A stretch of 64,000 nucleotides of DNA. Source: Steroidobacteraceae bacterium. Its GTDB lineage: Bacteria > Pseudomonadota > Gammaproteobacteria > Steroidobacterales > Steroidobacteraceae. Position numbers and translations under genes: made by a program. The DNA lies in NCBI GenBank assembly GCA_027456605.1, contig DAIDUQ010000065.1, positions 5,009-69,008 on the forward strand, written 5' to 3'. A model generated the notes under the pieces. That model had not been told where the DNA came from, did no database searches, and was given only the letters and a program-made list of their open reading frames with translations. Position 1 is the first letter of the stretch, and each line of letters begins with the position of its first letter. Shown here piece by piece: positions 12,296 through 30,036 of the stretch.

Positions 12296-13636
12296 TCAGA
12301 CGTTCAAGAGCAGATGTTCGCGCTCCCAGGAGCTGATCACCTGCAAGAACACCTCATATTCCGCCTCTTTGACGATGGTGAAGGCCGACACGAACGATTC
12401 CCCGAGCAGTTTCACCAGCGCGGTGCTGCCGCGCAGCGCGCGCAGCGCCTCATCGAGCGAGCGCGGCAGGCCGAACGGCAGCTCGTGCGCGCTGCCGGAG
12501 ATCGGATCGGTGGGCTGCAGCCCTTCGATCATCCCCAGATAGCCGCAGGCGAGCGAGGCCGCCAGCGCGATATAGGGATTGGCATCGGCGCCGCAGATGC
12601 GATTCTCCACCCGCCGGTCCTGCGGCTCGGACATCGGCACGCGCAGCCCCGCGGTGCGGTTGTCGTAGCCCCAGTGGGCGTTGATCGGCGCCGACAGATA
12701 CCGGGTCAGGCGGCGGTAGGAGTTGACATTGGCGCAAAACAGGGCCATGGCCGCCGGCAGGTACTTCTGCAGGCCGCCGATGTGGGCGAAGAACAGCCGC
12801 GAAGGGCTCCCGTCGGGATTGCTGAACACGTTGCGGCGCGTCTTGATGTCGACCACGCTCTGGTGGATGTGCATGGCGCTGCCGGGCTCCTTGGCGTGGG
12901 GCTTGGCCATGAAGGTGGCGTACATCTTGTGCCGCAGCGCCGCCTCGCGCGCGGTGCGCTTGAACAGGAAGGCCTGGTCGGCCAGATCGAGCGGGTGGCC
13001 GTGAATCAGATTGATCTCCATCTGTGCCGGGCCGTCCTCGTGGATCAGCGTGTCGATCTCGATGTCCTGATCCTCGCAGAACTGGTAGATGTCGTCGAAC
13101 AGCGGATCGAACTCGTTGACCGCCGCGATGCTGTACGACTGGCGCCCCGGCTCGGCGCGCCCGGAACGTCCGACCGGCGGACGCAGCGGATAATCCGCGT
13201 CCTTGTTCTGCTCGACCAGATAGAACTCCAGCTCCGGCGCCACGACCGGCTCCCAGCCGCGTTGGGCATACAACTCGACGATGTTGCGCAGCAGGTGGCG
13301 CGGCGCCATGGTCACGCGCCGTCCGTCGGCGTAGAAGCAGTCGTGAATCACCTGCGCGGTCGGCTCGGCCGCCCACGGCACCCGCCGCACCGTTCTCGGG
13401 TCGGCCTTCAAGATGATGTCGATCTCCGCCGGACTCATCGCGTGGGCGGTATCGGGCGGATAGTCGCCGGTGACCGTCTGCAGGAACACGCTTTCGGGCA
13501 GGCGCATGCCGCCGTCCTCGGCGAACTTCCCCGCCGGCATGATCTTGCCGCGCGCGATGCCGGCCATGTCGGGAATGATCGCCTCGACCTCGGAGATGGC
13601 GTGATCCCGGAAGAATTGACCCAGCTCACTCACCAT
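12296..13636 (-). CDS. puuA: glutamine synthetase family enzyme, gamma-glutamylpolyamine (putrescine) synthetase-like
   Basis: Track ORF 12296..13744, with start reset to ATG 13636 (MVSELGQFFRDH). GS type III-like motifs: ELEFYLV, FMAKPHAKEPGSAMHIHQS, NRTAGLRVP. Confidence 0.8.
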   Translation of the reverse strand: MVSELGQFFRDHAISEVEAIIPDMAGIARGKIMPAGKFAEDGGMRLPESVFLQTVTGDYPPDTAHAMSPAEIDIILKADPRTVRRVPWAAEPTAQVIHDCFYADGRRVTMAPRHLLRNIVELYAQRGWEPVVAPELEFYLVEQNKDADYPLRPPVGRSGRAEPGRQSYSIAAVNEFDPLFDDIYQFCEDQDIEIDTLIHEDGPAQMEINLIHGHPLDLADQAFLFKRTAREAALRHKMYATFMAKPHAKEPGSAMHIHQSVVDIKTRRNVFSNPDGSPSRLFFAHIGGLQKYLPAAMALFCANVNSYRRLTRYLSAPINAHWGYDNRTAGLRVPMSEPQDRRVENRICGADANPYIALAASLACGYLGMIEGLQPTDPISGSAHELPFGLPRSLDEALRALRGSTALVKLLGESFVSAFTIVKEAEYEVFLQVISSWEREHLLLNV

Positions 13637-13647
13637 GGATATACCTT

Positions 13648-14403
13648 TCAACGAGCGCGTGCGCGCGCGCGGCATGCCGCGCCGAAGGCGGCAAACAGCG
13701 CGCGCGAGAGGGGATTGTCCACGGCTTTCCACTCCGGATGCCACTGCACCGCCAGGGCGAACCGTGGCGCCGGCGCCACCCGGAATGCCTCGATCAGACC
13801 GTCCGTCGCCCGCGCCTCGACGACGAGCCCCCCGCCCAGCCGTTCAATCCCCTGCCAGTGCAGGGAGTTGACCCGGACCCGATCGACACCGGTGAGCTCG
13901 CGCAGCAGGCCATCGGGCTCGAGCGTGACCTCGTGCGCCGGCCCGTACTGCACCTCGATCGGCTGCGTCTCGTCGTCGCGGTGATCCAGGTGCCCCGGCA
14001 CCTCATGCACGCGCTGATACAGGCTCCCGCCGAAGGCCACGTTGATCTCCTGGAAGCCCCGGCAGATACCGAGTATCGGGACACTGAGGGCCACCGCCTT
14101 GCGGATCAGCGGCAGCGTGGTGGCATCGCGGTCCGGGTCATGCAGCGTGCCGGGAACGCTCGGCGGACCGGCGTAATGGCGCGGCTCGACGTTCGACGGA
14201 CTGCCGGTGAACAGCAGCCCGTCGAGCCGCTCGATGAGCGCCTCGAATCCCAGCGCCTCGGCAAGCGGCGGGATCAGCACGGGGAGCGCATCGGCCACAT
14301 CGAGCAGCGCGCGGGCATATTTCTCCGCCGCCGCGTGAAACGGCTGCGGGCCGATCATCCGGCGGTCCGCGAGAAGGCCAATGAGGGGGCGCGCCGATGG
14401 CAT
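13648..14403 (-). CDS. puuD: gamma-glutamyl-gamma-aminobutyrate hydrolase family (class I glutamine amidotransferase, peptidase C26)
   Basis: C-terminal 251 aa of track ORF 13648..15618, from ATG 14403 (MPSARPLIGLLAD). Motifs: ILGICRGFQEINVAFGG (nucleophile Cys) and AVQWHPEW. Confidence 0.8.
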   Translation of the reverse strand: MPSARPLIGLLADRRMIGPQPFHAAAEKYARALLDVADALPVLIPPLAEALGFEALIERLDGLLFTGSPSNVEPRHYAGPPSVPGTLHDPDRDATTLPLIRKAVALSVPILGICRGFQEINVAFGGSLYQRVHEVPGHLDHRDDETQPIEVQYGPAHEVTLEPDGLLRELTGVDRVRVNSLHWQGIERLGGGLVVEARATDGLIEAFRVAPAPRFALAVQWHPEWKAVDNPLSRALFAAFGAACRARARAR

Positions 14404-14433
14404 GGGTGTGGCGGCTATTATAGGAGCATCACC

Positions 14434-15702
14434 ATGCCCGCCGCCCATGCCCCGTCGTACTATGCCGCCTCGGTTCACATTCCTGTCCCGAGAACGCCGC
14501 TTCGCGGCTCGGAGCGGGTCGAGGTCTGTGTGGTCGGCGGGGGAATCGCCGGCTGCTCGGCCGCACTGCATCTGGCCGAGCGAGGCTATTCGGTCGCCCT
14601 GCTCGAGCGGCACCGTATCGGCTGGGGGGCCTCCGGCCGTAGCGGCGGGGAAGTCCTGCACGGCGTGGCGTGCGCCCAGGAAACGCTCGATCGGCTGATC
14701 GGCGCGGCCGGCTCGCGAGCGGTGTGGGATGCGGCAAGCGAGGCGGTGAGCCTCACCCGCGCCCTGATCGCGCGACACCGGATCGCGTGCGAGTGGACCG
14801 ACGGCTATTTGCTCACCGCGCTCAAGCGTCGCCACGACCGTGAGCTGCGCGCGCATATCGAGACGCTGCGGACCCGGTTCGACTATGGCAGCGTCCGCTA
14901 TGTGCCCGGCGACGAGCTGCGGACCACCCTGGCCAGCCGGCGCTACCGCAGCGCGATGTTCGACGCCAACGGCGCCCATCTGCATCCTCTGGCCTATACA
15001 TTGGGACTGGCGGAAGCGGCCGAGCGCGCCGGCGCGCGCCTGTTCGAGGGCACGCGCGCCGTGGAGGTTACACCCGGTCGGGTGCGCACCGAAGCCGGCG
15101 AAGTGCGCGCCGCGCACATCATCCTGTGCGGCAACGCCTACCTGGGCCCGGCCGCGCCGGCGCTCGCCGCCAAGATCATTCCCGTCGCCGCCCACGTGAT
15201 CGCCACCGAGCCGCTCGGCGCGGCGCGCGCCGCCGCCCTGATCACCAACGACGCGGCGGTGAGCGACATGAACTGGGTGCTCGATTACTTCCGCCGCACA
15301 GCCGATCATCGGCTGCTGTTCGGCGGCCCGATCAGTTATGGCCGCGGCACGGACTTCGACGCCCGGGCCGCGACACGCGCCCGGCTGCTGCGGGTCTTCC
15401 CCCAGCTGGCCGATGCGCGCATCGAGTACGCCTGGAGCGGACTGCTCGACCTGACCGCGAACCGCGCGCCGCACTTCGGCCGTTTGCTGCCCGGCGTGTA
15501 CTTCGCGCAGGGCTTCTCGGGCCACGGCCTCGCGCTCGCGGGCATGGCCGGCAAGCTCATGGCGGAGGCGATCGCCGGTCAGGCCGAGCGCTTCGATGTG
15601 TTCGCGCGCATCCCGCACCGGGACTTTCCGGGCGGTCCGCTCACGCGCCGCCCGCTGCTCGCCCTGGCGATGCTCTCCTACCGGCTGCGCGACTTGCTGT
15701 AG
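14434..15702 (+). CDS. puuB: FAD-dependent oxidoreductase, gamma-glutamylputrescine oxidase-like
   Basis: In-frame ATG 14434 within track ORF 13738..15702. The dinucleotide fold is VCVVGGGIAGCSAALHLAERGYSVALLE. It is divergent from puuD with a 30-nt spacer. Confidence 0.75.
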   Translation: MPAAHAPSYYAASVHIPVPRTPLRGSERVEVCVVGGGIAGCSAALHLAERGYSVALLERHRIGWGASGRSGGEVLHGVACAQETLDRLIGAAGSRAVWDAASEAVSLTRALIARHRIACEWTDGYLLTALKRRHDRELRAHIETLRTRFDYGSVRYVPGDELRTTLASRRYRSAMFDANGAHLHPLAYTLGLAEAAERAGARLFEGTRAVEVTPGRVRTEAGEVRAAHIILCGNAYLGPAAPALAAKIIPVAAHVIATEPLGAARAAALITNDAAVSDMNWVLDYFRRTADHRLLFGGPISYGRGTDFDARAATRARLLRVFPQLADARIEYAWSGLLDLTANRAPHFGRLLPGVYFAQGFSGHGLALAGMAGKLMAEAIAGQAERFDVFARIPHRDFPGGPLTRRPLLALAMLSYRLRDLL

Positions 15703-15732
15703 GCGCCGGCGCCCCGCGCGCCGGCGAGCGTG

Positions 15733-16785
15733 TCAGGACGACCCACGCGCACCCTCCTGCTGGAGCAGCTCCGCGATCTGCACGGCATTGAGCGCCGCGC
15801 CCTTCAGGAGCTGGTCGCCCGCGACGAACAGCGCGATGGAGCGGCCGCTCGGATCGGACAGGTCCGCGCGGATGCGGCCGACCAGGATCGGATCGGTGCC
15901 CGAGGCGTCCGCCGGCATGGGAAAATAATTGCGCTCCCGGTCATCGACCAACTTCACCCCCGGAGCACCGCCGATCAGATCGCGCACCGTGTCCGGCGTG
16001 ATCAGCCGCTCGCACTCGAAGTTGATGGCGATCGAATGCGCGCGCAGCACCGGCACGCGCACGCAGGTCGCCGTGACGCGGATCGACTCGTCGTCATAGA
16101 TCTTGCGGGTCTCGTACAGCGCCTTCAGTTCCTCCTCGTTGTAGCCGTTGTCCGGATTGACGGCCGAGTTGTGACTGAACAGATTGAAGGCATACGGGTG
16201 CGGCAGGACGCGCGGCGTGAACGGTTGCCGCTCCAGATAGGCGCGGGTCGATTCGCGCAGCTCCTCCATCGCGGCGGCGCCACCGCCCGAAGCCGCCTGA
16301 TAGGTCGAGAGAATCAGCCGCTTGATCGGGTTGCGCCGGTGTACCGGCCACAGCGGCGTGATCGCGATGATCGTCGAGCAGTTGGGATTGGCGATGATCC
16401 CCCGGTGGGTCTTGACCCTGTGTGGATTGATCTCGGGCACGACCAGCGGCACGGTCGGATCGCGCCGGAACGCCGAGGAGTTGTCGACCACGACCGCGCC
16501 CTGCTGCACCGCGAGCGGCGCGAACCGCTTGGAGATGCCGCCGCCGGCGGAAAACAGCGCGATATCGACGCCGCGAAACGAGTCCTCGGCGAGCGTCTCG
16601 ACCACGAGCGGCTCGCCGCGAAACGGCAGCGTCTTGCCCGCCGAGCGCGCCGAAGCGAGCAGGCGCAGCTTAGCGAGCGGGAACGCCCGCCGCTCCAGGC
16701 AGCGCAGCAGCTCGACACCGACAGCCCCGGTGGCACCGACGACCGCGACCACCGGCGAGGCGCCGGCCGAACGACCAGATGACAT
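15733..16785 (-). CDS. asd: aspartate-semialdehyde dehydrogenase
   Basis: Track ORF 15733..16803. ATG 16785 is preferred because GGAG lies 7 nt upstream. Motifs: VAVVGATGAVG, IIANPNCSTI (active-site Cys), STYQAASGGG. Confidence 0.9.
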   Translation of the reverse strand: MSSGRSAGASPVVAVVGATGAVGVELLRCLERRAFPLAKLRLLASARSAGKTLPFRGEPLVVETLAEDSFRGVDIALFSAGGGISKRFAPLAVQQGAVVVDNSSAFRRDPTVPLVVPEINPHRVKTHRGIIANPNCSTIIAITPLWPVHRRNPIKRLILSTYQAASGGGAAAMEELRESTRAYLERQPFTPRVLPHPYAFNLFSHNSAVNPDNGYNEEELKALYETRKIYDDESIRVTATCVRVPVLRAHSIAINFECERLITPDTVRDLIGGAPGVKLVDDRERNYFPMPADASGTDPILVGRIRADLSDPSGRSIALFVAGDQLLKGAALNAVQIAELLQQEGARGSS

Positions 16786-16810
16786 GTGCAGACTCCGCTC
16801 CATAGGCTCA

Positions 16811-16849
16811 GAAAAAACGAAGGCCCCGACGGTCGCTCCGGCGGGGCCT
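16811..16849 (-). terminator. rho-independent terminator (minus strand) immediately upstream of asd
   Basis: The minus strand reads AGGCCCCG-CCGGAGCGACCGT-CGGGGCCT followed by TCGTTTTTTC. This is an 8-bp GC stem plus a T-tract. It lies about 25 nt before the asd SD. Confidence 0.75.
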
Positions 16850-17540
16850 CTGGGTGTCTTCGCGACTCTCGCGCATCTTCAGCGCACGCGGATCCCCAGA
16901 GCCCCCCGGCGGGGCGTCTTCAGAATCTTCGTGCGCTTTTTCATCGGGAACATACGGGCCCAGAAGCTACCGGAAGCGCCGCGCCCTGTAAAGGTCGCCC
17001 GGGAGCCGCCGCCGGATGAATCCCCGCGGCGGCGATCAAGCCACGAATGCGCTCGAGCTCGGCGGCCGTCACGGCCCGTCCGCGGCGGCGCATCGGTCCG
17101 CGCGAATCGACCCGGCCGGTTTCTCGAGCGGCGCGCCGCGCATTGGGCCGAATGACCCCGGCAGGAAGGAGCGGACCGCGCGAACGCGACGCGATGGCAG
17201 AGGCGCCGGGAATCCACGGGACACCGATCAGGCGAGGGCCGAGGGATTGGACGTGACCCAACAGAACAGTGATGGCCGGCACGGTCGTGCGCCTCGCGAG
17301 GAATAGTACGTACAGGCCGAAATGCGCAAATTTCAACTTGTGGCATACTTCAGGACGTCGGGGCGCAGAGCAGGAGGCGGCGCTCAGGTCGCCAGACGGA
17401 TCTGCGCCGGAGCGCAATGAGCCTTTTTATTGTTCTCGTGCCGCGAATTTCTCTCCGCTCCGAACCAACAGCGCAAGGATCACACGACGCGGGGGCAGCA
17501 GCTGGCGACGATGGCGCTCATTTTCTCAGGAGGCGGCTGT

Positions 17541-18728
17541 ATGGCTCGGTACCAGTTCCAGGTGGTTTACTTCGAGGCGACGCGCAGGTGCGATCTGCGC
17601 TGTCCGTACTGCATGACGGGAAGTAATGACGCGAAGAAGGTGCGCCGCAGTGTTCTCAGGGAACTCACGCTGGAGGAGATCCGCGAGCGGATCCTGACCC
17701 CCGCCCGCCGCCTCGGGGTACATACCATCGGCTGGAGCGGCGGGGAGTTTCTGCTGCGCAAGGATGCGCCGGAGCTGCTGCGCCTGACCGTGAACATGGG
17801 CTATCAGTGCTCCGTGCTCAGCAACTGCAAGAAACTGACGCGCGCGCGACTGGAGAAGATCCGCGACGTGACCGATGGGCGCGCAAGAATCGTCGTCGGT
17901 CTGAACGCGGTGGACGCAGAGAACCGGCAGACGCGCGACAGCGAGTCCGACCGGACGCTGCGGGTGCTCGAGGACTGCACCGAGCTGGGGCTCGGCCAGC
18001 ACGTGGTCATCACGATCGGCAAGTACAACACCGAGAGCTTCGCGAAGACCGTCGAATTCTGCGTCGAGCACAACATCGCTTACAATCGCTCGCCGCTGGT
18101 CCCACGCGGGTCGGGATCGGGCTGCTTTGCCGGCATGGGATTCGACAGGAATGATCTCGAGCGGCACTTTCATCCGGCGCTGCGCCGCCATCCGCACGGC
18201 TATGTGAGTTATACGCCGTATTTCCTCTCGCCCGAGCTTCATGCGCGGGTGTCCGGGGGCGCTCGCAACAATACGGTCCCGCAGAATCCCTCGATCGGCT
18301 GCTGGGTCGGATCGTGGCTCACCATCAACGCCGAGGGAGATGTCTCGGTCTGTCCCGTGCTGCTGGATGCGCTGAGCGGCGGGAACGTGCGCGACATGCC
18401 CATTGACGAGCTGGTCGAATCCAGTCCCTTCTTCGCCGAAATCACCGACCGTTCCGCTCTGCAGGGCCGTTGCGGCCGCTGCCGCTACCAGTACACGTGC
18501 GGGGGATGTCGGGCCATGGCGTTCTATCACACCGGGGATTACATGGGGGAGGATCCCACCTGTTTCTTCGATCCGGTGGATCGCTCCACAGTCAGCGAGC
18601 ATGAGGCGGAAACGAATCGCGTCTTCAAGGAATACCTGCTGGTGGCGCGGGCGGCCGGGGCGTACAAGCCGCCGGCAGGCTGCCGGCTTGGAGGATCGCC
18701 CGCTCCGAGAAGCCTCGCCAGAGGCTGA
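17541..18728 (+). CDS. radical SAM / SPASM-domain enzyme (PqqE/peptide-maturase-like architecture)
   Basis: ATG 17541 is preceded by AGGAGG (17528-17533), within track ORF 17430..18728. The radical SAM core shows FEATRRCDLRCPYC (CX3CX2C) and GWSGGEFLL. The C-terminal auxiliary-cluster Cys pattern is CWVGSWLTINAEGDVSVC ... CGRCRYQYTCGGCRAMAF ... DPTCF. Confidence 0.9.
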   Translation: MARYQFQVVYFEATRRCDLRCPYCMTGSNDAKKVRRSVLRELTLEEIRERILTPARRLGVHTIGWSGGEFLLRKDAPELLRLTVNMGYQCSVLSNCKKLTRARLEKIRDVTDGRARIVVGLNAVDAENRQTRDSESDRTLRVLEDCTELGLGQHVVITIGKYNTESFAKTVEFCVEHNIAYNRSPLVPRGSGSGCFAGMGFDRNDLERHFHPALRRHPHGYVSYTPYFLSPELHARVSGGARNNTVPQNPSIGCWVGSWLTINAEGDVSVCPVLLDALSGGNVRDMPIDELVESSPFFAEITDRSALQGRCGRCRYQYTCGGCRAMAFYHTGDYMGEDPTCFFDPVDRSTVSEHEAETNRVFKEYLLVARAAGAYKPPAGCRLGGSPAPRSLARG

Positions 18729-18803
18729 TTTTCCGCTCGCGCGCGGTACGCAGGCCCATCGTCGTATCCGTTGCGCATCATTCATGAGGCTGGAGCCCCG
18801 CTT

Positions 18804-20771
18804 ATGCTCAATGTCACGACCCTGAGCGGCCTGATCGAGGCCAACCGCACCTACCCGCGCGCCATCACCTATCTGGAGGGTGAAAGCGACACTCACTCCG
18901 TCGAGTTTGCGGAGCTTTACGAGCGCGCCCTCGGCATCCTGCACCGTCTGCAGCGCCTCGGCGCGAGCCCCGGAGACACGCTGATCCTGTTCCTGGAACA
19001 CAACGAGCAGTTCATCGACGCGTTCTGGGCCGCGATCTTGGGCGGCATCATTCCGGTGCCGGTGGCGCTCGGCATCAGCGACGAGCACCGGCACAAGCTG
19101 CTGCGCATCGCCCGGCGGCTCGGCAATCCCTATCTCTACACCGAGCGCCGCTCGCTCGAGCGCATCGCGGCTTTCGCCGAGCAGACCGGGCAGTCCGAGA
19201 CGATACAGGGGCTGCACGCGCGCGCCTTTCTGGTCGATGACCTGGATGATATCTCGCAGGCGGGCACGGTGTACGCCGCACGCCCCGAGGACATTGCCTT
19301 CATCCAGTTCTCCTCGGGCGCGACCAGCGATCCCAAGGGCGTGGTCCTGACGCACGCCAACATCATCGCCAACGCGCGCGGCGCTAGCGAAGTGGCCGGC
19401 TTCAATGAGCACGACGTCAGCCTGTCGTGGATGCCGCTCACCCATGACATGGGATTGATCGGCTTTCACCTGATGATGTTCGCCAACCGGGTGCGGGCGC
19501 ACCTCATGCCGACGGATCTGTTCGTGCGCCGGCCGCTCCTGTGGCCGCAGTTCGCCAGCCGTATTCGCGCCACCATCCTCTGCTCTCCGAACTTCGGCTA
19601 CAAGCACTATCTGAAGGCGCTCGGCGAGCGTCCCGTCGAGGGGCTGGACCTCTCCAGCGTTCGATTGATTTTCAACGGAGCCGAGCCGATCTCGGTCGAG
19701 CTGTGCGAGCAGTTCCTCGACAGGCTCGCGCCGGCGGATCTTGCGCCGAACGCCATGTATCCGGTGTATGGCCTCGCGGAGGCCTCGCTCGCCGTGAGCT
19801 TCCCCCCGCCGGGTGCGCCGATGCGCACGGTGGCGCTCGACCGACACCGAATGGGCATCGGCGAGGAGGTTCGGCTCGTGGCGCAGGACGCTCACGAGGC
19901 CGTGCGGCTCGCTTCGGAAGGCAAGCCGATACCGTATTGCCAGGTGCGTATCGCGGACGACGGCGATCGGCCATTGCCCGACGGCCGCATCGGCCATCTG
20001 CACATGCGCGGAGAGAATGTCACGCGCGGCTACTACGAGAGCCCCGAGGCTGACGCCGAGGCCTTCACCGCCGACGGCTGGCTGCGCACGGGCGACCTTG
20101 CCGTCGTCCACGGCGGTGATCTGTATGTCTCGGGCCGGGCGAAGGAAATCATCTTCGTCAACGGCCAGAATTACTACCCCCACGATCTGGAGGCGATCGC
20201 CCAGCGCATCGAGGGACTCGAGCTCGGCAAGGTGGCGGCGGCCGGCGTGCGCCGGCCCGGATCGCAGATCGAGGAGTTGGCGCTGTTCGTGCTGCACCGC
20301 GGCGCGCTGGCGGACTTCCTGCCGCTCGCCCTTGCCGTGGCCCGCCTGATCAACGAGCGGACCGGGCTCGAGGTGGCCGAAGTCGTGCCGGTCAAGCGCA
20401 TCCCCAAGACCACCAGCGGCAAGATTCAGCGGCACCTGCTCGAGGAGCGCTTCGCCGACGGAGCGTTCGATGCCGAGCTCGAGGCGCTTGCCGCATTGCG
20501 CGAGGCGCGCCGCGATCCCGGGACGGCCGCCCGCAGCGTGATCGAGGACAAGCTCAAGACGATCTGCGACGCGGCGCTCGGCGACAAGCGGATCGATGTC
20601 CGCGACAACCTGTTCCAGCTCGGGGCGAGCTCGCTGAAGCTCATCGAGATCCACGAGCAGATCGACCGGGAATATCCCGGCCAGATCGATCTCACCGATA
20701 TGTTCGATTTCCCGACGATTGCGGAGCTGGCGCTGCACCTGCAAGACAAACTGTCCGCGAACGGGGCGTGA
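18804..20771 (+). CDS. fatty acyl-AMP ligase (FAAL) fused to a C-terminal acyl/peptidyl carrier protein domain
   Basis: Track ORF 18771..20771 (TTG). ATG 18804 is preferred, with GGAG 8 nt upstream. FAAL motifs: FIQFSSGATSDPKGVVLTHANI, WMPLTHDMGLIGFHL, VSGRAKEIIFVNGQNYYPHDLE, IPKTTSGKIQR. The carrier domain reads DNLFQLGASSLKLIEIHEQI (Ser attachment site). Confidence 0.85.
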   Translation: MLNVTTLSGLIEANRTYPRAITYLEGESDTHSVEFAELYERALGILHRLQRLGASPGDTLILFLEHNEQFIDAFWAAILGGIIPVPVALGISDEHRHKLLRIARRLGNPYLYTERRSLERIAAFAEQTGQSETIQGLHARAFLVDDLDDISQAGTVYAARPEDIAFIQFSSGATSDPKGVVLTHANIIANARGASEVAGFNEHDVSLSWMPLTHDMGLIGFHLMMFANRVRAHLMPTDLFVRRPLLWPQFASRIRATILCSPNFGYKHYLKALGERPVEGLDLSSVRLIFNGAEPISVELCEQFLDRLAPADLAPNAMYPVYGLAEASLAVSFPPPGAPMRTVALDRHRMGIGEEVRLVAQDAHEAVRLASEGKPIPYCQVRIADDGDRPLPDGRIGHLHMRGENVTRGYYESPEADAEAFTADGWLRTGDLAVVHGGDLYVSGRAKEIIFVNGQNYYPHDLEAIAQRIEGLELGKVAAAGVRRPGSQIEELALFVLHRGALADFLPLALAVARLINERTGLEVAEVVPVKRIPKTTSGKIQRHLLEERFADGAFDAELEALAALREARRDPGTAARSVIEDKLKTICDAALGDKRIDVRDNLFQLGASSLKLIEIHEQIDREYPGQIDLTDMFDFPTIAELALHLQDKLSANGA

Positions 20772-21098
20772 TCACGGCGAAGAGCCCCGGCAAGCGCATC
20801 GTCTCGACACCGAACGGGAATCTGCGCTCGATCGGGCACTGCGGCACGAACTTCGACAGCGTCCGCACGCCGCCGCCACCGCGGCGCGTGTCCTCGTCAT
20901 GGCCGCCAGAACGGATTTATCGTCGGACCGCGGGTTCTGCGCCCGCCCTCCGAGCATCCCGAAACGTGACCGCCGGCACGAGAAACGGCCGCCGATCTTG
21001 GTAAAAGCTAAGGTCATGCATGCACCGTGAGCCTCCGGGCTCGCGCGCATGCCGATCACCCGGCGGCTCCGCCCCCGGAGGCGCCGGCAGGAGATTCC

Positions 21099-22508
21099 AT
21101 GAATGCAGCCGCAGATCGCGCCCGAATCCCCGACTGGCTGATACCGCAGCCGGCGCGCATCGGCGCGACGGTACGCCTCGCGGAGATCATCGGAGCGCTG
21201 AGCTACGCCCTCGACCTCACCGAGGGCCAGCCGCCCGGACACTGCCTGCGCGGCTGCTGGATCGGCATGCACACCGGGCGGATGCTCGGACTGGATACCT
21301 TGACGCTTTCCGATCTCTACTACACGCTGCTGCTGAAGGACACCGGCTGCAGCAGCAACGCCGCGCGCCTCTGGGAGCTGTACGGCGGCGATGAGCTGCG
21401 CACCAAGCACGACTTCAAGCAGGTCGACTCGCAGAGCCTGCTGCAGCTGGCCCGCTTCGTGCTGCGCCACGCCGGACCCGGCGAAGCGCTGCGCGCGCGC
21501 ATCAAGCGGCTGGTGAACCTGTACCGCAATGGCGATGCGCTCGCCACCGAGCTGGTCCATACGCGATGCGAGCGAGGCGCGGAGATCGTGCGCCGGCTCG
21601 GGTTCGGCGAAGCGGTCGCCGCGGGAATCTTCAGCCTGGATGAGCATTGGAACGGCAAGGGTCGGCCGCAAGGCCTGCGCGGGGAATACATCCCGATCGG
21701 CGCACGCATAGCGCTGCTCGCTCAGGTCGTCGATGTCTTCAACACCGTCGGCGGCGAACGCGCCGTCGAAACCGAAGTGCGCCGCCGCACGGGCGCCTGG
21801 TTCGACCCGCAAGTCAGCCGGGCGTTTTTCGCGGTCGCGCGCAGCCGGGCGTTCTGGTCGGGCTTGCGCCCGGAGGGACTCGAGGAGCGGGTGATGGCGC
21901 TCGAGCCCGACGCGGGTACCGTGCTCGTCGATGAGCCCCGTCTCGACTCGATCGCTGAGGCGTTCGCCGACATCATCGACGCCAAGAGCAACTTCACCTA
22001 CGGGCACAGTCAGCGCGTGGCGAGCTACGCCGACGCGATCGCCGCGGACCTCGACGTGCCCGCTTCCCGCCGTCGCTGGCTGCACCGCGCCGCGCTGCTG
22101 CACGACATCGGCAAGCTGGGAGTCAGCAACGGCATCCTCGACAAGCCGGGCCGCCTCGATGCCGACGAATGGGAAGCGGTGAAGCGCCATGCCCGCTTCA
22201 CCGAGGACATCCTGGCGCGCGTGAGCGTGTTCAGCGCACTGGCGCCGATCGCTGGCGCGCACCACGAACGGCCGGACGGCACGGGCTATCCCAAGCGCCT
22301 GGCCGGCGCGGCGATTCCACTCGCGACGCGCATCATCACGGCTTGCGACATCTTCGATGCCGTCACCGCGGCGCGCCCCTATCGAGAGGCGATGCCGCTG
22401 GAGCGGGCGCTCGAGCTGATGGAGCGCGAGCGCGACAGCGCGATCGACGGGCGCTGCCTGGACGCGTTGAGGAAGACCGCGGGCACGCGGAGTTCCGCCG
22501 CGTCCTGA
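21099..22508 (+). CDS. tandem HD-GYP domain protein (degenerate N-terminal copy + canonical C-terminal HD-GYP, putative c-di-GMP phosphodiesterase)
   Basis: ATG 21099 within track ORF 21027..22508. The C-terminal copy reads HSQRVASYA, AALLHDIGKLGV and AHHERPDGTGYPKRL. The N-terminal copy reads LLLKDTGCS and DEHWNGKGRPQGL. Confidence 0.85.
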   Translation: MNAAADRARIPDWLIPQPARIGATVRLAEIIGALSYALDLTEGQPPGHCLRGCWIGMHTGRMLGLDTLTLSDLYYTLLLKDTGCSSNAARLWELYGGDELRTKHDFKQVDSQSLLQLARFVLRHAGPGEALRARIKRLVNLYRNGDALATELVHTRCERGAEIVRRLGFGEAVAAGIFSLDEHWNGKGRPQGLRGEYIPIGARIALLAQVVDVFNTVGGERAVETEVRRRTGAWFDPQVSRAFFAVARSRAFWSGLRPEGLEERVMALEPDAGTVLVDEPRLDSIAEAFADIIDAKSNFTYGHSQRVASYADAIAADLDVPASRRRWLHRAALLHDIGKLGVSNGILDKPGRLDADEWEAVKRHARFTEDILARVSVFSALAPIAGAHHERPDGTGYPKRLAGAAIPLATRIITACDIFDAVTAARPYREAMPLERALELMERERDSAIDGRCLDALRKTAGTRSSAAS

Positions 22509-22552: not shown

Positions 22553-24784
22553 TCAGCGCGCGCGCAGCTCGAAACAGCGGTGAATGCGCGGATTGCGCTC
22601 GAAATCGCGCGGCAGCGTCGCCGCGGAGACATCGCTCACCGCGTAGCGCAGTCCGACATCGGCGTCCAGTTGGAATCGCTGCGCGTTGGTCGAGAACACG
22701 AGCAGCCCTCCGGGGGCGAGCAGCCGCATGCACTGCTCGATGAGCGCGCCGTGATCGCGCTGGATGTCGAGCACGCCCTGCATGCGCTTGGAATTCGAGA
22801 ACGTCGGCGGATCGAGAAAGATCAGATCATAGCGGCCCGGATCGCGGGCCGCGTCCCGCAGCCACTCGCGACAATCGGCCTGAACGAAGGCATGCGGGCC
22901 GTCCTGGAGCCCGTTCAACAGCAGATTGCGCCGCGCCCAGTCGAGATAGGTCCGCGACAGATCGACCGAGGTGGTCGCGGCGGCCCCGCCCGCGGCCGCA
23001 TACACGGTCGCGGTGCCCGTGTAAGCGAAGAGGTTGAGAAAGCGCCGGCCGCGGGCCGCGCCGCGCAGCCGCTCGCGGGTGAGGCGATGATCGAGGAACA
23101 ACCCCGTATCGAGATACGCCTCGAAGCTCACCTCGAATCTCAATCCTCCTTCGCTGACGACAGGGTGTGTGCCGCCGACCGTCCCGGGCGCCAGCCCCGC
23201 CGGCCCGCGCATCGCGCGCGGGCGCTCGGCGCTGCGCGACTCGTCCTTGCCATATTGCTCGCCGCGCCGGGTACGCCGGCGTGTGCGTACCCTGATCCGC
23301 TCGCGCGGCACGCCGCTCGCGCGCGGCAGACTCGCAAACACCTCGCCGCGCCGCCGGCGCACCGCCTCGGGATCGATGTCGCCCGGAGCGGCGTATTCCT
23401 GCACGTAGAGCCAGCGCTCGACGGGATCCAGCGTCTCGTACTGGTCGATGGCAAAGGCATACTCGGGCATGTCGGCGTCGTAGAGGCGATAGCACGAGAC
23501 CGCCTCGCGCTCGGCCCAGCGCCGCAGCTGCTTGAGGTTCTTCGTCAGCCGGTTGGCGAACATGCGCGCGCCGGGCGTTTCGGCCAGCAGGCTGTCCGGC
23601 CGCGCCAGCGAGCCCGGCGGGCGCAGGCTCCGGGCCTCGACGCTCATGCGCAACAGCCGGCATTCGATCGCACCGTTCCACAGCGTGTGGGTGCGTGCGG
23701 CACGAATTCCCAGCTCCATGCCGAATCGCGGCACCCCGGTCAGCACCGCCGCGCGCCAGCCCTGGAAGTGCTCGCGCAGCACCGCGCCGAGCTCCCGATG
23801 CGTCGCGCGCGCCTGCTCGAGATCGGTCAGGCGTGCGCCGTACGGCGGGTTGGTACACACGAGCCCGGCGCCGGGCCCCACCGGCCGCGCCTCCCGCAGC
23901 GGACCGGTCTCGAACCGCACCCATGCGGCGATGCCGGCCCGCTCGGCATTGGCGCCCGCGGCGCGCACGGCAGCGCGGTTCCAGTCGCGGCCACGGAGCA
24001 CGGGCGTCGCCGGCGCGCGCTCGAGGCAGCGAGCGCGCGCCGCCGCCTCGACCGTCCGCCACAGCTGCGCATCGTGGCCGCGCCAGCCGAGAAAGCCAAA
24101 GTACGCGCGGCCCAGGCCCGGGGCGCGCCGCGCGGCGATCAGCGCCGCCTCGATCACCAGCGTTCCCGAGCCGCACATCGGATCGAGAAACTCCGCCCCC
24201 TCGGCCGCAAGCTGCGGCCAGAGGCTGCGGATCAGCACGCCGGCGGCCACGTTCTCCTTCAGCGGCGCCTCACCCGCCGCGCCGCGATAGCCGCGCCGAT
24301 GCAGGCTTTCCCCTGAAAGATCGACATAGAGCGTGACGGCCGCGCCGTGCGCATGCGCGTGAACGCGCACATCCGGGCGATCCAACACGATGCTCGGCCG
24401 CGCGCCGCTCGGGGCGCGTACGGCATCCACGATCGCGTCTTTGAGCTTGAGCGCGCCGAAATGACTGTGGACGATGGTGGGATGCCGCCCGGTGAACTCG
24501 CACGCCAGGCTCGCCCCGGCATCCAGATGCTCGCCCCAGGCAAGCGCGCGCGACTGCGCGTAGAACGATTCGGTGTCCGGCGCCTCGAAGCGCGCGACCT
24601 GCAGCAGCACGCGGTTGGCGAGCCGCGACTCCAGGCAGGCGCGGTAGGCGGTCTCGAGCGTGCCGGCGAAGCTCACCGCCGCGGCTCGCTCGCGCACCTC
24701 CTGGGCGCCGAGCGCCGCAAGCTCGGCCGCGAGCAGGTCGGCAAGCCCGCGCGGCGCCGTGGCGAGGAATGGAAGCGGACTCAC
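22553..24784 (-). CDS. rlmL: bifunctional 23S rRNA m2G2445/m7G2069 methyltransferase RlmKL
   Basis: Track ORF 22553..24898. The likely GTG start at 24784 gives VSPLPFLATAPRGLADLLAAEL, like the E. coli N-terminus. Motifs: DPMCGSGTLVIEAA, LVCTNPPYGARL, second MTase FLNLFAYTGTATVYAA and IFLDPPTFSNSK. Confidence 0.85.
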   Translation of the reverse strand: MSPLPFLATAPRGLADLLAAELAALGAQEVRERAAAVSFAGTLETAYRACLESRLANRVLLQVARFEAPDTESFYAQSRALAWGEHLDAGASLACEFTGRHPTIVHSHFGALKLKDAIVDAVRAPSGARPSIVLDRPDVRVHAHAHGAAVTLYVDLSGESLHRRGYRGAAGEAPLKENVAAGVLIRSLWPQLAAEGAEFLDPMCGSGTLVIEAALIAARRAPGLGRAYFGFLGWRGHDAQLWRTVEAAARARCLERAPATPVLRGRDWNRAAVRAAGANAERAGIAAWVRFETGPLREARPVGPGAGLVCTNPPYGARLTDLEQARATHRELGAVLREHFQGWRAAVLTGVPRFGMELGIRAARTHTLWNGAIECRLLRMSVEARSLRPPGSLARPDSLLAETPGARMFANRLTKNLKQLRRWAEREAVSCYRLYDADMPEYAFAIDQYETLDPVERWLYVQEYAAPGDIDPEAVRRRRGEVFASLPRASGVPRERIRVRTRRRTRRGEQYGKDESRSAERPRAMRGPAGLAPGTVGGTHPVVSEGGLRFEVSFEAYLDTGLFLDHRLTRERLRGAARGRRFLNLFAYTGTATVYAAAGGAAATTSVDLSRTYLDWARRNLLLNGLQDGPHAFVQADCREWLRDAARDPGRYDLIFLDPPTFSNSKRMQGVLDIQRDHGALIEQCMRLLAPGGLLVFSTNAQRFQLDADVGLRYAVSDVSAATLPRDFERNPRIHRCFELRAR

Positions 24785-25005
24785 GTCAGGACGGCGAGAG
24801 GGACACGGATCGCGCGCGACTCGTGGCCCCTGGAATTCAGCTGCATCTGCGGGTCCCGGTGCGAGGATGCGTGCCGGTTGCACGCCTGAGCGTGGCATTA
24901 TGCCCGAACTGCCGCCGCCGGCGTCTCCTGGACAAATTCCAAAAAGTCTCCTAGCCTTCGGGACCTCCCCACCCCGGGATCGGATCCACTGACGGAGGAG
25001 CCCCC

Positions 25006-29988: not shown

Positions 29989-30002
29989 CTTGACATCGGT
30001 CA
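29989..30002. promoter_or_regulatory. FNR/Anr/FixK-type box TTGAC-N4-GTCAA in the fnr-ubiT divergent intergenic region
   Basis: The perfect palindrome TTGACATCGGTCAA was read directly. It ends about 35 nt upstream of the ubiT ATG and lies about 50 nt upstream of the proposed fnr start. Coordinates are +/-1 nt. Confidence 0.6.
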
Positions 30003-30036
30003 AATTCCGGCCTCGGCGGGCCATTACGATCGCGCC

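Follow-up and report, generated by a model that had tools for sequence, protein, structure and literature searches.

A radical SAM/SPASM gene that displaced a cytochrome P450 next to a FAAL-carrier protein gene in Steroidobacteraceae may encode a tailoring enzyme for the carrier-bound acyl chain

A 64,000-nucleotide stretch of contig DAIDUQ010000065.1 from a Steroidobacteraceae bacterium (GenBank assembly GCA_027456605.1), referred to below as the window, contains a gene for a radical S-adenosylmethionine (SAM) enzyme with a SPASM domain, here called rSAM, followed on the same strand by a gene for a fatty acyl-AMP ligase (FAAL)-like adenylation domain fused to an acyl carrier protein (ACP) domain, here called FAAL-ACP. 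Both genes lie where a sequence-only reading of the window had placed them, with the 76-nt gap it gave between the rSAM stop and the FAAL-ACP ATG (Table 1). The sequence AGGAGG stands 8 nt upstream of the rSAM ATG and GGAG stands 9 nt upstream of the FAAL-ACP ATG, no terminator-like site was found in the interval between the genes, and the two form one operon.

Table 1 Features of the rSAM-FAAL-ACP locus and its surroundings, in window positions
Feature	Position	Strand	Details
rSAM/SPASM gene	17541-18728	+	395 aa; Pfam and NCBIfam domain models above cut-offs
CX3CX2C cluster motif CDLRCPYC	17589-17612	+	residues 17-24; C17/C21/C24 invariant in 41 homologues
SPASM region, seven invariant cysteines	18300-18563	+	C254, C271, C311, C314, C320, C323, C341
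Fossil 3' end of P450 gene, now the rSAM-FAAL-ACP spacer	18733-18803	+	blastn to last 71 nt of the L179 P450 gene
FAAL-like adenylation domain fused to carrier (ACP/PCP) domain	18804-20771	+	655 aa
Carrier domain	20550-20741	+	PF00550; predicted attachment Ser is the second S of LGASS, nt 20631-20633
Degenerate FNR/CRP-family-like box TTTATTGTTCTCGT	17426-17439	+	left half-site G->T, 7 extra nt follow
Possible decayed lpxJ (DUF374) remnant	17040-17312	-	within the 737-nt asd-rSAM stretch
asd	15733-16803	-	neighbour of the pair
HD_5/HD-GYP-type protein	21027-22508	+	neighbour of the pair
RlmL	22553-24898	-	neighbour of the pair

The first protein is a member of the radical SAM superfamily and of its SPASM subclass, with scores of 71.3 bits for Pfam Radical_SAM (PF04055; cut-off 29.5), 27.3 bits for Pfam SPASM (PF13186; cut-off 21.5), and 37.5 bits for the NCBIfam SPASM domain (TIGR04085; cut-off 27). 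The motifs picked out in the sequence-only reading, namely CDLRCPYC, GGEFLL (residues 67-72) and an auxiliary cysteine pattern, were all found, the last being C254-x16-C271 (with G266-x4-C271), C311-x2-C314-x5-C320-x2-C323 and C341, although the central motif has to be corrected to CX2CX5CX2C, as compared to the canonical CX2CX5CX3C. The seven SPASM cysteines, which correspond to the subclass motif for two auxiliary 4Fe-4S clusters, the three cluster cysteines and C146 are invariant in the 41 homologues. Every NCBIfam equivalog model scored far under its cut-off. The best were NirJ2 (118.3 bits) and AhbD (116.1 bits), both with full-length alignments and cut-offs of 500, and lower scores were obtained with PqqE (91.4 bits; cut-off 381), NirJ (83.5 bits; cut-offs 500-515 for NirJ, NirJ2 and AhbD), MftC (53.1 bits; cut-off 265), the sactisynthases, and Tes (NF045702, 45.6 bits; cut-off 450), whose alignment is confined to the radical SAM core. 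The Tes structure, PDB 7TOL, likewise matched residues 11-154 only (E 1.1e-6). The top PDB sequence match was PqqE (64.6 bits), and an AlphaFold model (pLDDT 74.9, pTM 0.80) had PqqE, SuiB, SkfB, MoaA and anSME as its nearest folds, with a Foldseek search of the PDB returning generic SPASM/twitch relatives only (TM about 0.5-0.6). The PqqE-like resemblances in sequence and predicted fold appear generic and give no indication of function.

The rSAM protein belongs to a large family, with 1023 proteins matching at E<=1e-5 and 98 relatives from species-representative genomes at 62-95% identity. Because an identity of 62-69% is kept between the window protein and members from metagenome-assembled genomes (MAGs) of Binatia, Myxococcota, Gemmatimonadota, Acidobacteriota and Dadabacteria, the family constitutes a distinct and uncharacterised orthologous group, unusually conserved across at least five phyla. 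The sequence-only reading could not match the gene pair to a characterised pathway, and subfamily assignment with NCBIfam agreed, placing rSAM in no curated family. One MAG (JAPTUI01, FAK.bin15) carries two rSAM copies, 82% and 79% identical to the window protein (comparison loci L017 and L020), which are either paralogues or strain heterogeneity.

Since NirJ2 and AhbD gave the best full-length alignments, rSAM might be an enzyme of the AhbD/NirJ kind, one that decarboxylates a tetrapyrrole or other small molecule or cleaves its side chains, with no relation to lipids. The compact radical SAM plus SPASM architecture, without a RiPP recognition element (RRE; RiPP, ribosomally synthesized and post-translationally modified peptide), is common to these proteins, and some family members have been named 'AdoMet-dependent heme synthase' by JGI. 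We regard this explanation as improbable, given that the scores reach only about a quarter of the curated cut-offs, that the cross-phylum identity marks a distinct orthologous group, and that heme, siroheme and nir genes were absent from the 25 most frequent families of 134 immediate rSAM neighbours, from the called genes of 20 looked-up loci and from the scanned window genes.

In the second protein, all five motifs quoted in the sequence-only reading, comprising the FAAL hallmarks and LGASS, were located in the translation. Pfam AMP-binding scored 187.6 bits, and the top NCBIfam model for the adenylation domain is a FAAL subfamily (NF006624) at 354.9 bits, with a cut-off of 600. The nearest solved relatives are the loading A-PCP (PCP, peptidyl carrier protein) didomain of McyG and the FAALs 3KXW, 3PBK and FadD32/28/23. 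The C-terminal region scored 42.9 bits for PP-binding (PF00550; cut-off 20.8), and the serine of LGASS (residues 606-610) aligns with the phosphopantetheine serine of McyG (GGHS), so that this region has the features of a carrier protein (ACP or PCP) and is predicted to be phosphopantetheinylated. Very many orthologues with 60-86% full-length identity are present in Steroidobacteraceae-like soil bacteria.

These orthologues have a consistent setting. Among the 80 best metagenome loci for FAAL-ACP, 75 had enough upstream sequence to judge, and in 70 of the 75 a cytochrome P450 gene lies immediately 5' of FAAL-ACP on the same strand, preceded by a divergent DUF374 gene wherever the contig extends that far. 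The P450 arrangement was also present in seven look-up loci (L094, L095 and L176-L180), in all of which the P450 stop overlaps the FAAL-ACP start by one base. In the other five of the 75 metagenome loci, which are deep-branching, the DUF374/lpxJ gene adjoins FAAL-ACP without a P450. DUF374 corresponds to LpxJ, the family of 3' secondary acyltransferases for lipid A (PMC6148475), and the cassette P450 is nearest to CYP97 carotenoid hydroxylases, CYP3A, CYP4B1 and CYP102 (BM3). The usual partners of FAAL-ACP are therefore a tailoring P450 and a lipid acyltransferase, not a nonribosomal peptide synthetase (NRPS) or polyketide synthase (PKS). The sequence-only reading had seen no NRPS/PKS partner, which was borne out by finding no ketosynthase (KS), condensation (C), thioesterase (TE), phosphopantetheinyl transferase (PPTase), P450 or DUF374 gene near the pair; its description of FAAL-ACP as an orphan does not hold, as the gene is part of a conserved cassette, in which the P450 is translationally coupled to it and an lpxJ-family gene is divergent. 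This lpxJ-P450-FAAL-ACP cassette appears undescribed in the searchable literature, where a search for LpxJ with P450 returned no papers and none was found tying FAAL-ACP or a P450 to LpxJ.

The window FAAL-ACP falls within the range of the cassette orthologues (60-86% identity) and has 86.7% nucleotide identity through the gene to that of the P450-type locus L179. The 64-kb window itself contains no P450 or DUF374/lpxJ gene, and what is left of the rest of the cassette is a 71-nt fossil of the P450 3' end and a marginal lpxJ-like remnant. The left edge of the blastn homology between the window and L179 lies at 18733, five bases past the rSAM stop and 71 nt before the FAAL-ACP ATG. Over 18733-18804, 51 of 72 nt are identical to the last 72 nt of the L179 P450 gene, and in the first 55 nt, from which the ribosome-binding region is excluded, 37 are identical, compared to a maximum of 30 in 5000 shuffles. 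The fossil translates as PLARGTQAHRRIRCASFMRLEPRL, to be compared with the P450 C-terminus PIELEAQINLRTRYPVFMKLEPR, and still provides the GGAG ribosome-binding site of the FAAL-ACP gene. In related loci, L011 retains the P450 C-terminal codons LEAQTKLRTRHPVYMRLERR, and the 489-nt rSAM-FAAL-ACP spacer of L093 holds two P450 fragments, corresponding to residues of about 165-229 (E 3e-9) and 406-430, in what is a P450 pseudogene with an internal deletion (L093:9492-10003). Because the spacer is the 3' end of a P450 gene, and because relatives keep P450 fossils or a pseudogene in the same place, rSAM physically displaced the P450 at the window locus. These fossils are unusually direct evidence for non-orthologous gene displacement. 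At L093, an insertion sequence (IS) element (HTH_Tnp_1 and rve) lies just 5' of rSAM, and methionine-salvage genes (MtnA, MtnB and an APH kinase) are found nearby, as they are beside the solitary rSAM of L086.

The nearest relative after the near-identical L001 and L002 is L181, with 94% nucleotide identity over window positions 12795-20752. Its gene order, puuA-puuD-DAO-asd(-)-rSAM-FAAL-ACP-nadC(-)-grx-RNaseT-amidohydrolase-PepM17, fuses the upstream synteny of the window with the downstream synteny of the P450 cassette, and the same downstream synteny is present in L011, marking an ancestral nadC-grx-RNaseT-amidohydrolase-PepM17 locus. Public gene calls at L181:4214-5925 look wrong, with rSAM called at 371 aa from an internal methionine and the CX3CX2C motif omitted. 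A 199-aa Arg/Pro-rich open reading frame (ORF) 5' of rSAM in L181 was rejected as a shadow ORF, its frame being broken in the window at 92% nucleotide identity. The non-coding stretch between asd and rSAM in the window (16804-17540) is unusually long at 737 nt and retains 92% nucleotide identity in L181. Within it, the minus strand of 17040-17312 is colinear with residues of about 134-228 of three cassette LpxJ proteins, at 25.0 bits, a score that only 3 of 400 shuffles attained and that all 83 other 737-nt window tiles fell short of, and its orientation is that predicted by the ancestral cassette. These data are suggestive only of a possible lpxJ remnant, which together with a promoter box is all that can be accounted for in the stretch.

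The position of rSAM in other genomes was determined from 80 species-representative loci plus look-up loci. FAAL-ACP lies directly 3' of rSAM in 13 non-redundant loci, the window included, all in the gammaproteobacterial (Steroidobacteraceae-like) clade of the rSAM family, and on the tree of that clade solitary rSAMs branch in among the linked ones. At least seven outer contexts were distinguished for the pair, which is flanked by asd and the HD-GYP gene (window), asd and nadC, GST and nadC, SQS_PSY and a P-type ATPase, an IS element and an amino-acid permease, MarC, or an outer-membrane efflux protein. In L009, L019 and L032, our own ORF calls extend the rSAM frame as far as the FAAL-ACP start. 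In L030, rSAM is followed by a stand-alone ACP, 66% identical to the window carrier domain and with LGASS intact. The variant operon there (L030:1843-6060) consists of rSAM, the ACP, a phosphoesterase of the phospholipase C family and an acyl-CoA dehydrogenase, with no adenylation domain. L030, where the partner is a stand-alone ACP, ties rSAM to the carrier domain in particular. The pairing recurs and would be under selection.

Some neighbours of rSAM in other phyla are also lipid-flavoured, including an acyl-CoA dehydrogenase with an acyl-CoA synthetase (L059), WS/DGAT (L034), PEMT (six loci), a CarF-like desaturase (L089), an Htd2-like dehydratase (L086) and GpsA (L090), which is consistent with an acyl-chain substrate in general. 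No family-wide conserved neighbour of rSAM was found by ORF clustering and Pfam counts in the 80 genomes, and PdxH (11 loci) and a molybdopterin oxidoreductase (7 loci) were rejected as partners, since they reflect Binatia synteny. A lipid-like island occupies L081:1-7728, directly 5' of the rSAM-FAAL-ACP pair, and holds two B12-binding radical SAM genes (one with DUF4070), a sulfotransferase, LPG_synthase_TM, Omp85 and a squalene/phytoene synthase-family gene. In 15 loci, mostly of Binatia (L046, L047, L050 and about 12 others), a short conserved plus-strand stretch whose translation ends in RKRGIQRGTDRQ* lies 40-180 nt 3' of the rSAM stop; a conserved non-coding element is one possible explanation and the shadow of an adjacent gene another, and the window lacks the stretch.

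These surveys also bear on the two hypotheses offered in the sequence-only reading, of which radical chemistry on an acyl chain is favoured by the comparative evidence and a cassette for a lipidated peptide is not. In the latter, a minimal RiPP/lipopeptide cassette, rSAM would mature a small peptide and FAAL-ACP would lipidate the product. Many SPASM enzymes are peptide maturases, and the structural neighbours of rSAM include PqqE, SuiB, SkfB and CteB. On the other hand, because the cluster motif starts already at residue 17, the protein has no N-terminal extension able to house an RRE or other peptide-recognition domain. No small ORF is conserved beside rSAM across 92 loci, the apparent small-ORF clusters there being alternate-frame shadows of real genes, and no peptidase or transporter travels with rSAM. 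A C domain, a peptidase and an exporter are all absent nearby, the rSAM-FAAL-ACP spacer is a non-coding P450 fossil, and the slot earlier held a P450 of the fatty-acid or terpenoid hydroxylase type. A peptide product is thus highly unlikely.

We asked whether the displacement had occurred once. The rSAM-linked FAAL-ACPs occupy one part of the FAAL-ACP tree, interleaved with P450-linked copies. The window FAAL-ACP is 84-85% identical to that of the P450-linked L179 and only 72-81% identical to most rSAM-linked copies, with 95% identity to that of L002 and 86% to the L181 protein, and the L011 FAAL-ACP is 83% identical to that of the P450-linked L178. The length of the P450 fossil varies by lineage. 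One MAG, JAJYUL01 (DX4.bin29, GCA_021792555.1), holds both versions, with lpxJ-P450-FAAL-ACP-nadC on contig 3 (L178, JAJYUL010000003.1) and rSAM-FAAL-ACP on contig 14 (L006, JAJYUL010000014.1); its FAAL-ACP copies share 77% identity and G+C is similar on both contigs, although a binning artefact is possible. A simple one-time replacement was rejected, given the two cassettes of JAJYUL01 and the lack of monophyly of the rSAM-linked FAAL-ACPs. Replacement looks recurrent, and the simplest reading is that rSAM was recruited to the P450 slot repeatedly, or moved there by recombination, sometimes replacing the P450 and sometimes joining a second FAAL-ACP copy.

The rSAM gene also has its own promoter. 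The box [CT]TGA[CT]-N4-[GC]TC matches 25 of 36 upstream regions (200 nt) of rSAM in the gammaproteobacterial clade, with 0.74 matching loci expected from shuffling, and none of 58 P450 upstream regions. Its place is 90-110 nt 5' of the ATG in 21 of the 36 loci, the other four matches being the -35 element itself, and in 20 loci a TTGAC(A) -35 element follows 15-24 nt 3' of the box, then a TAAnA-like -10 element. This promoter architecture was seen upstream of rSAM among L003-L032, L081 and L093. The -35/-10 spacing would put the box near -61.5. We take the box to resemble FNR/FixK/Dnr-type sites, and it may reflect anoxic induction of rSAM, that is, an oxygen switch. Elsewhere in the window, a perfect FNR-type palindrome, TTGACATCGGTCAA, is present at 29990-30003, and the pattern TTGAYNNNNRTCAA, allowing up to one mismatch, occurs 7 times compared to 1.4 expected, an excess that suggests an FNR/Anr-like regulon in the source organism.

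The most serious alternative is that the adjacency has no functional meaning, so that rSAM would serve an independent, widely conserved single-gene function, for example the modification of a general lipid, a cofactor or another small molecule, having landed 5' of FAAL-ACP in the rearrangements that destroyed the P450 and left FAAL-ACP untailored. The sequence-only reading had made the pairing depend on family membership and conserved adjacency; the outcome that would have refuted it did not occur, as rSAM falls in no known family and the adjacency recurs in 13 loci of the clade, but the adjacency is absent from most family members. In 59 of 80 non-redundant loci rSAM is solitary, including relatives at 85-87% identity, and every member outside the gammaproteobacterial clade stands alone. 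The conserved promoter, the absence of a family-wide neighbour, the five loci with FAAL-ACP beside lpxJ and no tailoring gene, and the IS element flanking rSAM in L093 all agree with such an independent function, as does the carrier domain, in which no residues were found that separate rSAM-linked from P450-linked copies. Against this, chance would have had to place rSAM in the same slot and orientation in several lineages with differing breakpoints and outer contexts. L030 keeps rSAM with a carrier protein only, the rSAM frame reaches the FAAL-ACP start in three loci, an intergenic terminator is absent, and at L093 the P450 decayed after rSAM sat upstream, as redundancy predicts. We consider a meaningless adjacency possible but doubtful.

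Given the displacement and the recurrent pairing, we favour, with a probability of roughly 0.5, a reading in which rSAM has taken over from the P450 and tailors the carrier-tethered acyl chain without O2. The product might go on to lipid A via LpxJ, as synteny suggests. The operon would derive from an envelope-lipid cassette of Steroidobacteraceae-like gammaproteobacteria, in which lpxJ is divergent from a P450 gene followed by FAAL-ACP. As judged by homology, the FAAL-like domain would adenylate a free carboxylic acid, probably a fatty acid, and load it onto its own carrier. The enzyme encoded immediately 5' would then modify the tethered chain, as gene order, displacement, recurrent pairing and the ACP-only variant suggest; this would be a P450 related to CYP102/CYP4/CYP97 hydroxylases in most relatives and the O2-independent radical SAM/SPASM enzyme in the window. 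Candidate rSAM reactions are dehydrogenation or desaturation, net hydroxylation or oxidation, and C-C bond formation or cleavage. In the last and weakest step, which is drawn from synteny, the modified chain might be transferred to an acceptor lipid; lipid A is one possibility, with LpxJ as the late acyltransferase.

Several observations weigh against this reading of rSAM as an acyl-ACP tailoring enzyme. The enzyme is mostly solitary and therefore does not need an adjacent FAAL-ACP, it has a promoter of its own, and the window copy of the FNR-like box is degenerate. The 80 best metagenome matches to FAAL-ACP include no rSAM-linked one, and FAAL-ACP lacks any tailoring gene in five loci, so loss of the P450 could be tolerated without replacement. 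The closest solved relative of FAAL-ACP, McyG, loads phenylpropanoids, which leaves a fatty-acid substrate putative, and the undifferentiated carrier domain counts here as well. P450-type hydroxylation is not known from radical SAM enzymes, and the products of rSAM and the P450 may differ. As for lipid A, the link to LpxJ is synteny within one family, in which a GGDEF-EAL gene and fur are equally syntenic, and the window has no lpxJ gene and only a marginal lpxJ fossil.

The remaining surroundings of the pair were as the sequence-only reading had described, with asd, the HD-GYP gene and rlmL as neighbours and SodB also among them. A putrescine-utilisation-like trio 5' of asd (12296-15702) comprises a glutamine-synthetase-family gene (PuuA-like), a class-I glutamine amidotransferase/peptidase C26 gene (PuuD-like, the domain being assigned from the syntenic L181 gene and not from a scan of the window gene) and a DAO-family FAD oxidoreductase; the trio keeps its synteny in L181 and L002 and seems to have no bearing on the rSAM-FAAL-ACP pair. 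An Rfam scan of the whole window gave zero matches.

A bolder and rather unlikely extension is that the whole rSAM family, with more than 1000 members ranging over Steroidobacteraceae, Binatia, Myxococcota, Gemmatimonadota, Acidobacteriota and Dadabacteria, consists of unrecognised O2-independent enzymes that modify fatty-acyl chains on ACP or lipids and are interchangeable with a P450 hydroxylase. If the fatty-acyl reading were true, diderm soil and sediment bacteria could make the same modified acyl chain for an envelope lipid with or without O2; this might be a secondary chain of lipid A that LpxJ delivers. On the favoured and narrower reading, in which rSAM acts on the carrier-tethered chain, it would already be the first known example of a radical SAM/SPASM enzyme that takes over acyl-ACP tailoring from a P450, an aerobic/anaerobic enzyme pair would be added to envelope-lipid biosynthesis, and the neighbouring acyl-FAAL-ACP would offer a concrete, testable substrate for a large unannotated radical SAM family. 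The ancestral cassette hints at a dedicated, tailored lipid A acyl donor in abundant soil Gammaproteobacteria.

Among known systems, AhbD, NirJ and NirJ2 are the nearest characterised relatives of rSAM in sequence, aligning over the full length, and like them rSAM is compact, is devoid of a peptide-recognition domain and probably has a small-molecule substrate; it differs in its scores (116-118 bits compared to cut-offs of 500), in the lack of a tetrapyrrole context and in the central CX2CX5CX2C motif. Unlike the SPASM maturases of RiPPs (PqqE, MftC, sactisynthases and SuiB-type enzymes), rSAM has neither an RRE/PqqD-like domain nor a conserved precursor gene. P450s are known to act on carrier-tethered substrates, as in BioI/CYP107H1 with acyl-ACP and the NRPS beta-hydroxylases, and in the same manner the sister cassettes encode a tailoring oxidoreductase next to, and coupled with, its substrate carrier. 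The window enzyme is unlike BioI/CYP107H1 in being a radical SAM/SPASM and not a heme enzyme, the displaced P450 is near CYP97/CYP3A/CYP4/CYP102 in sequence and not CYP107H, and no biotin genes are nearby. Dedicated acyl carriers for lipid A are represented by the AcpXL/LpxXL system. The ancestral cassette is similar to this and to LpxJ systems in setting FAAL-ACP near a divergent LpxJ-family gene, which suggests a dedicated donor for secondary acylation, and the window departs from LpxJ systems in having only the marginal fossil and no intact lpxJ.

Lipid-modifying radical SAM enzymes were the subject of a 2026 review covering Tes, Mss, Gms, GrsA/B, Gmm, Cds, HpnH/J/P/R, Jaw5 and the proposed ladderane enzymes, of which Tes and Gms carry SPASM domains and the ladderane enzymes and Jaw5 are proposed to use ACP-linked substrates (PMC13459092). 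Radical chemistry on inert hydrocarbon chains, which for the window rSAM is a proposal, would be shared with these enzymes, none of which has a FAAL-ACP partner or stands in for a P450 (PMC13459092). Literature searches for radical SAM with SPASM and FAAL, and for radical SAM with FAAL, acyl carrier protein, gene cluster and lipid, returned no papers. Pairs of oxygen-dependent and oxygen-independent enzymes are known from HemF/HemN and AcsF/BchE. Unlike those pairs, rSAM and the P450 may yield different modifications; like them, an O2-requiring and a radical SAM enzyme would share one pathway position, JAJYUL01 has both versions, and the FNR-like box is on the rSAM promoter only. What is new here is an uncharacterised radical SAM family and an apparently undescribed ancestral cassette, and what is known in kind is carrier-dependent acyl tailoring and the substitution of aerobic by anaerobic enzymes.

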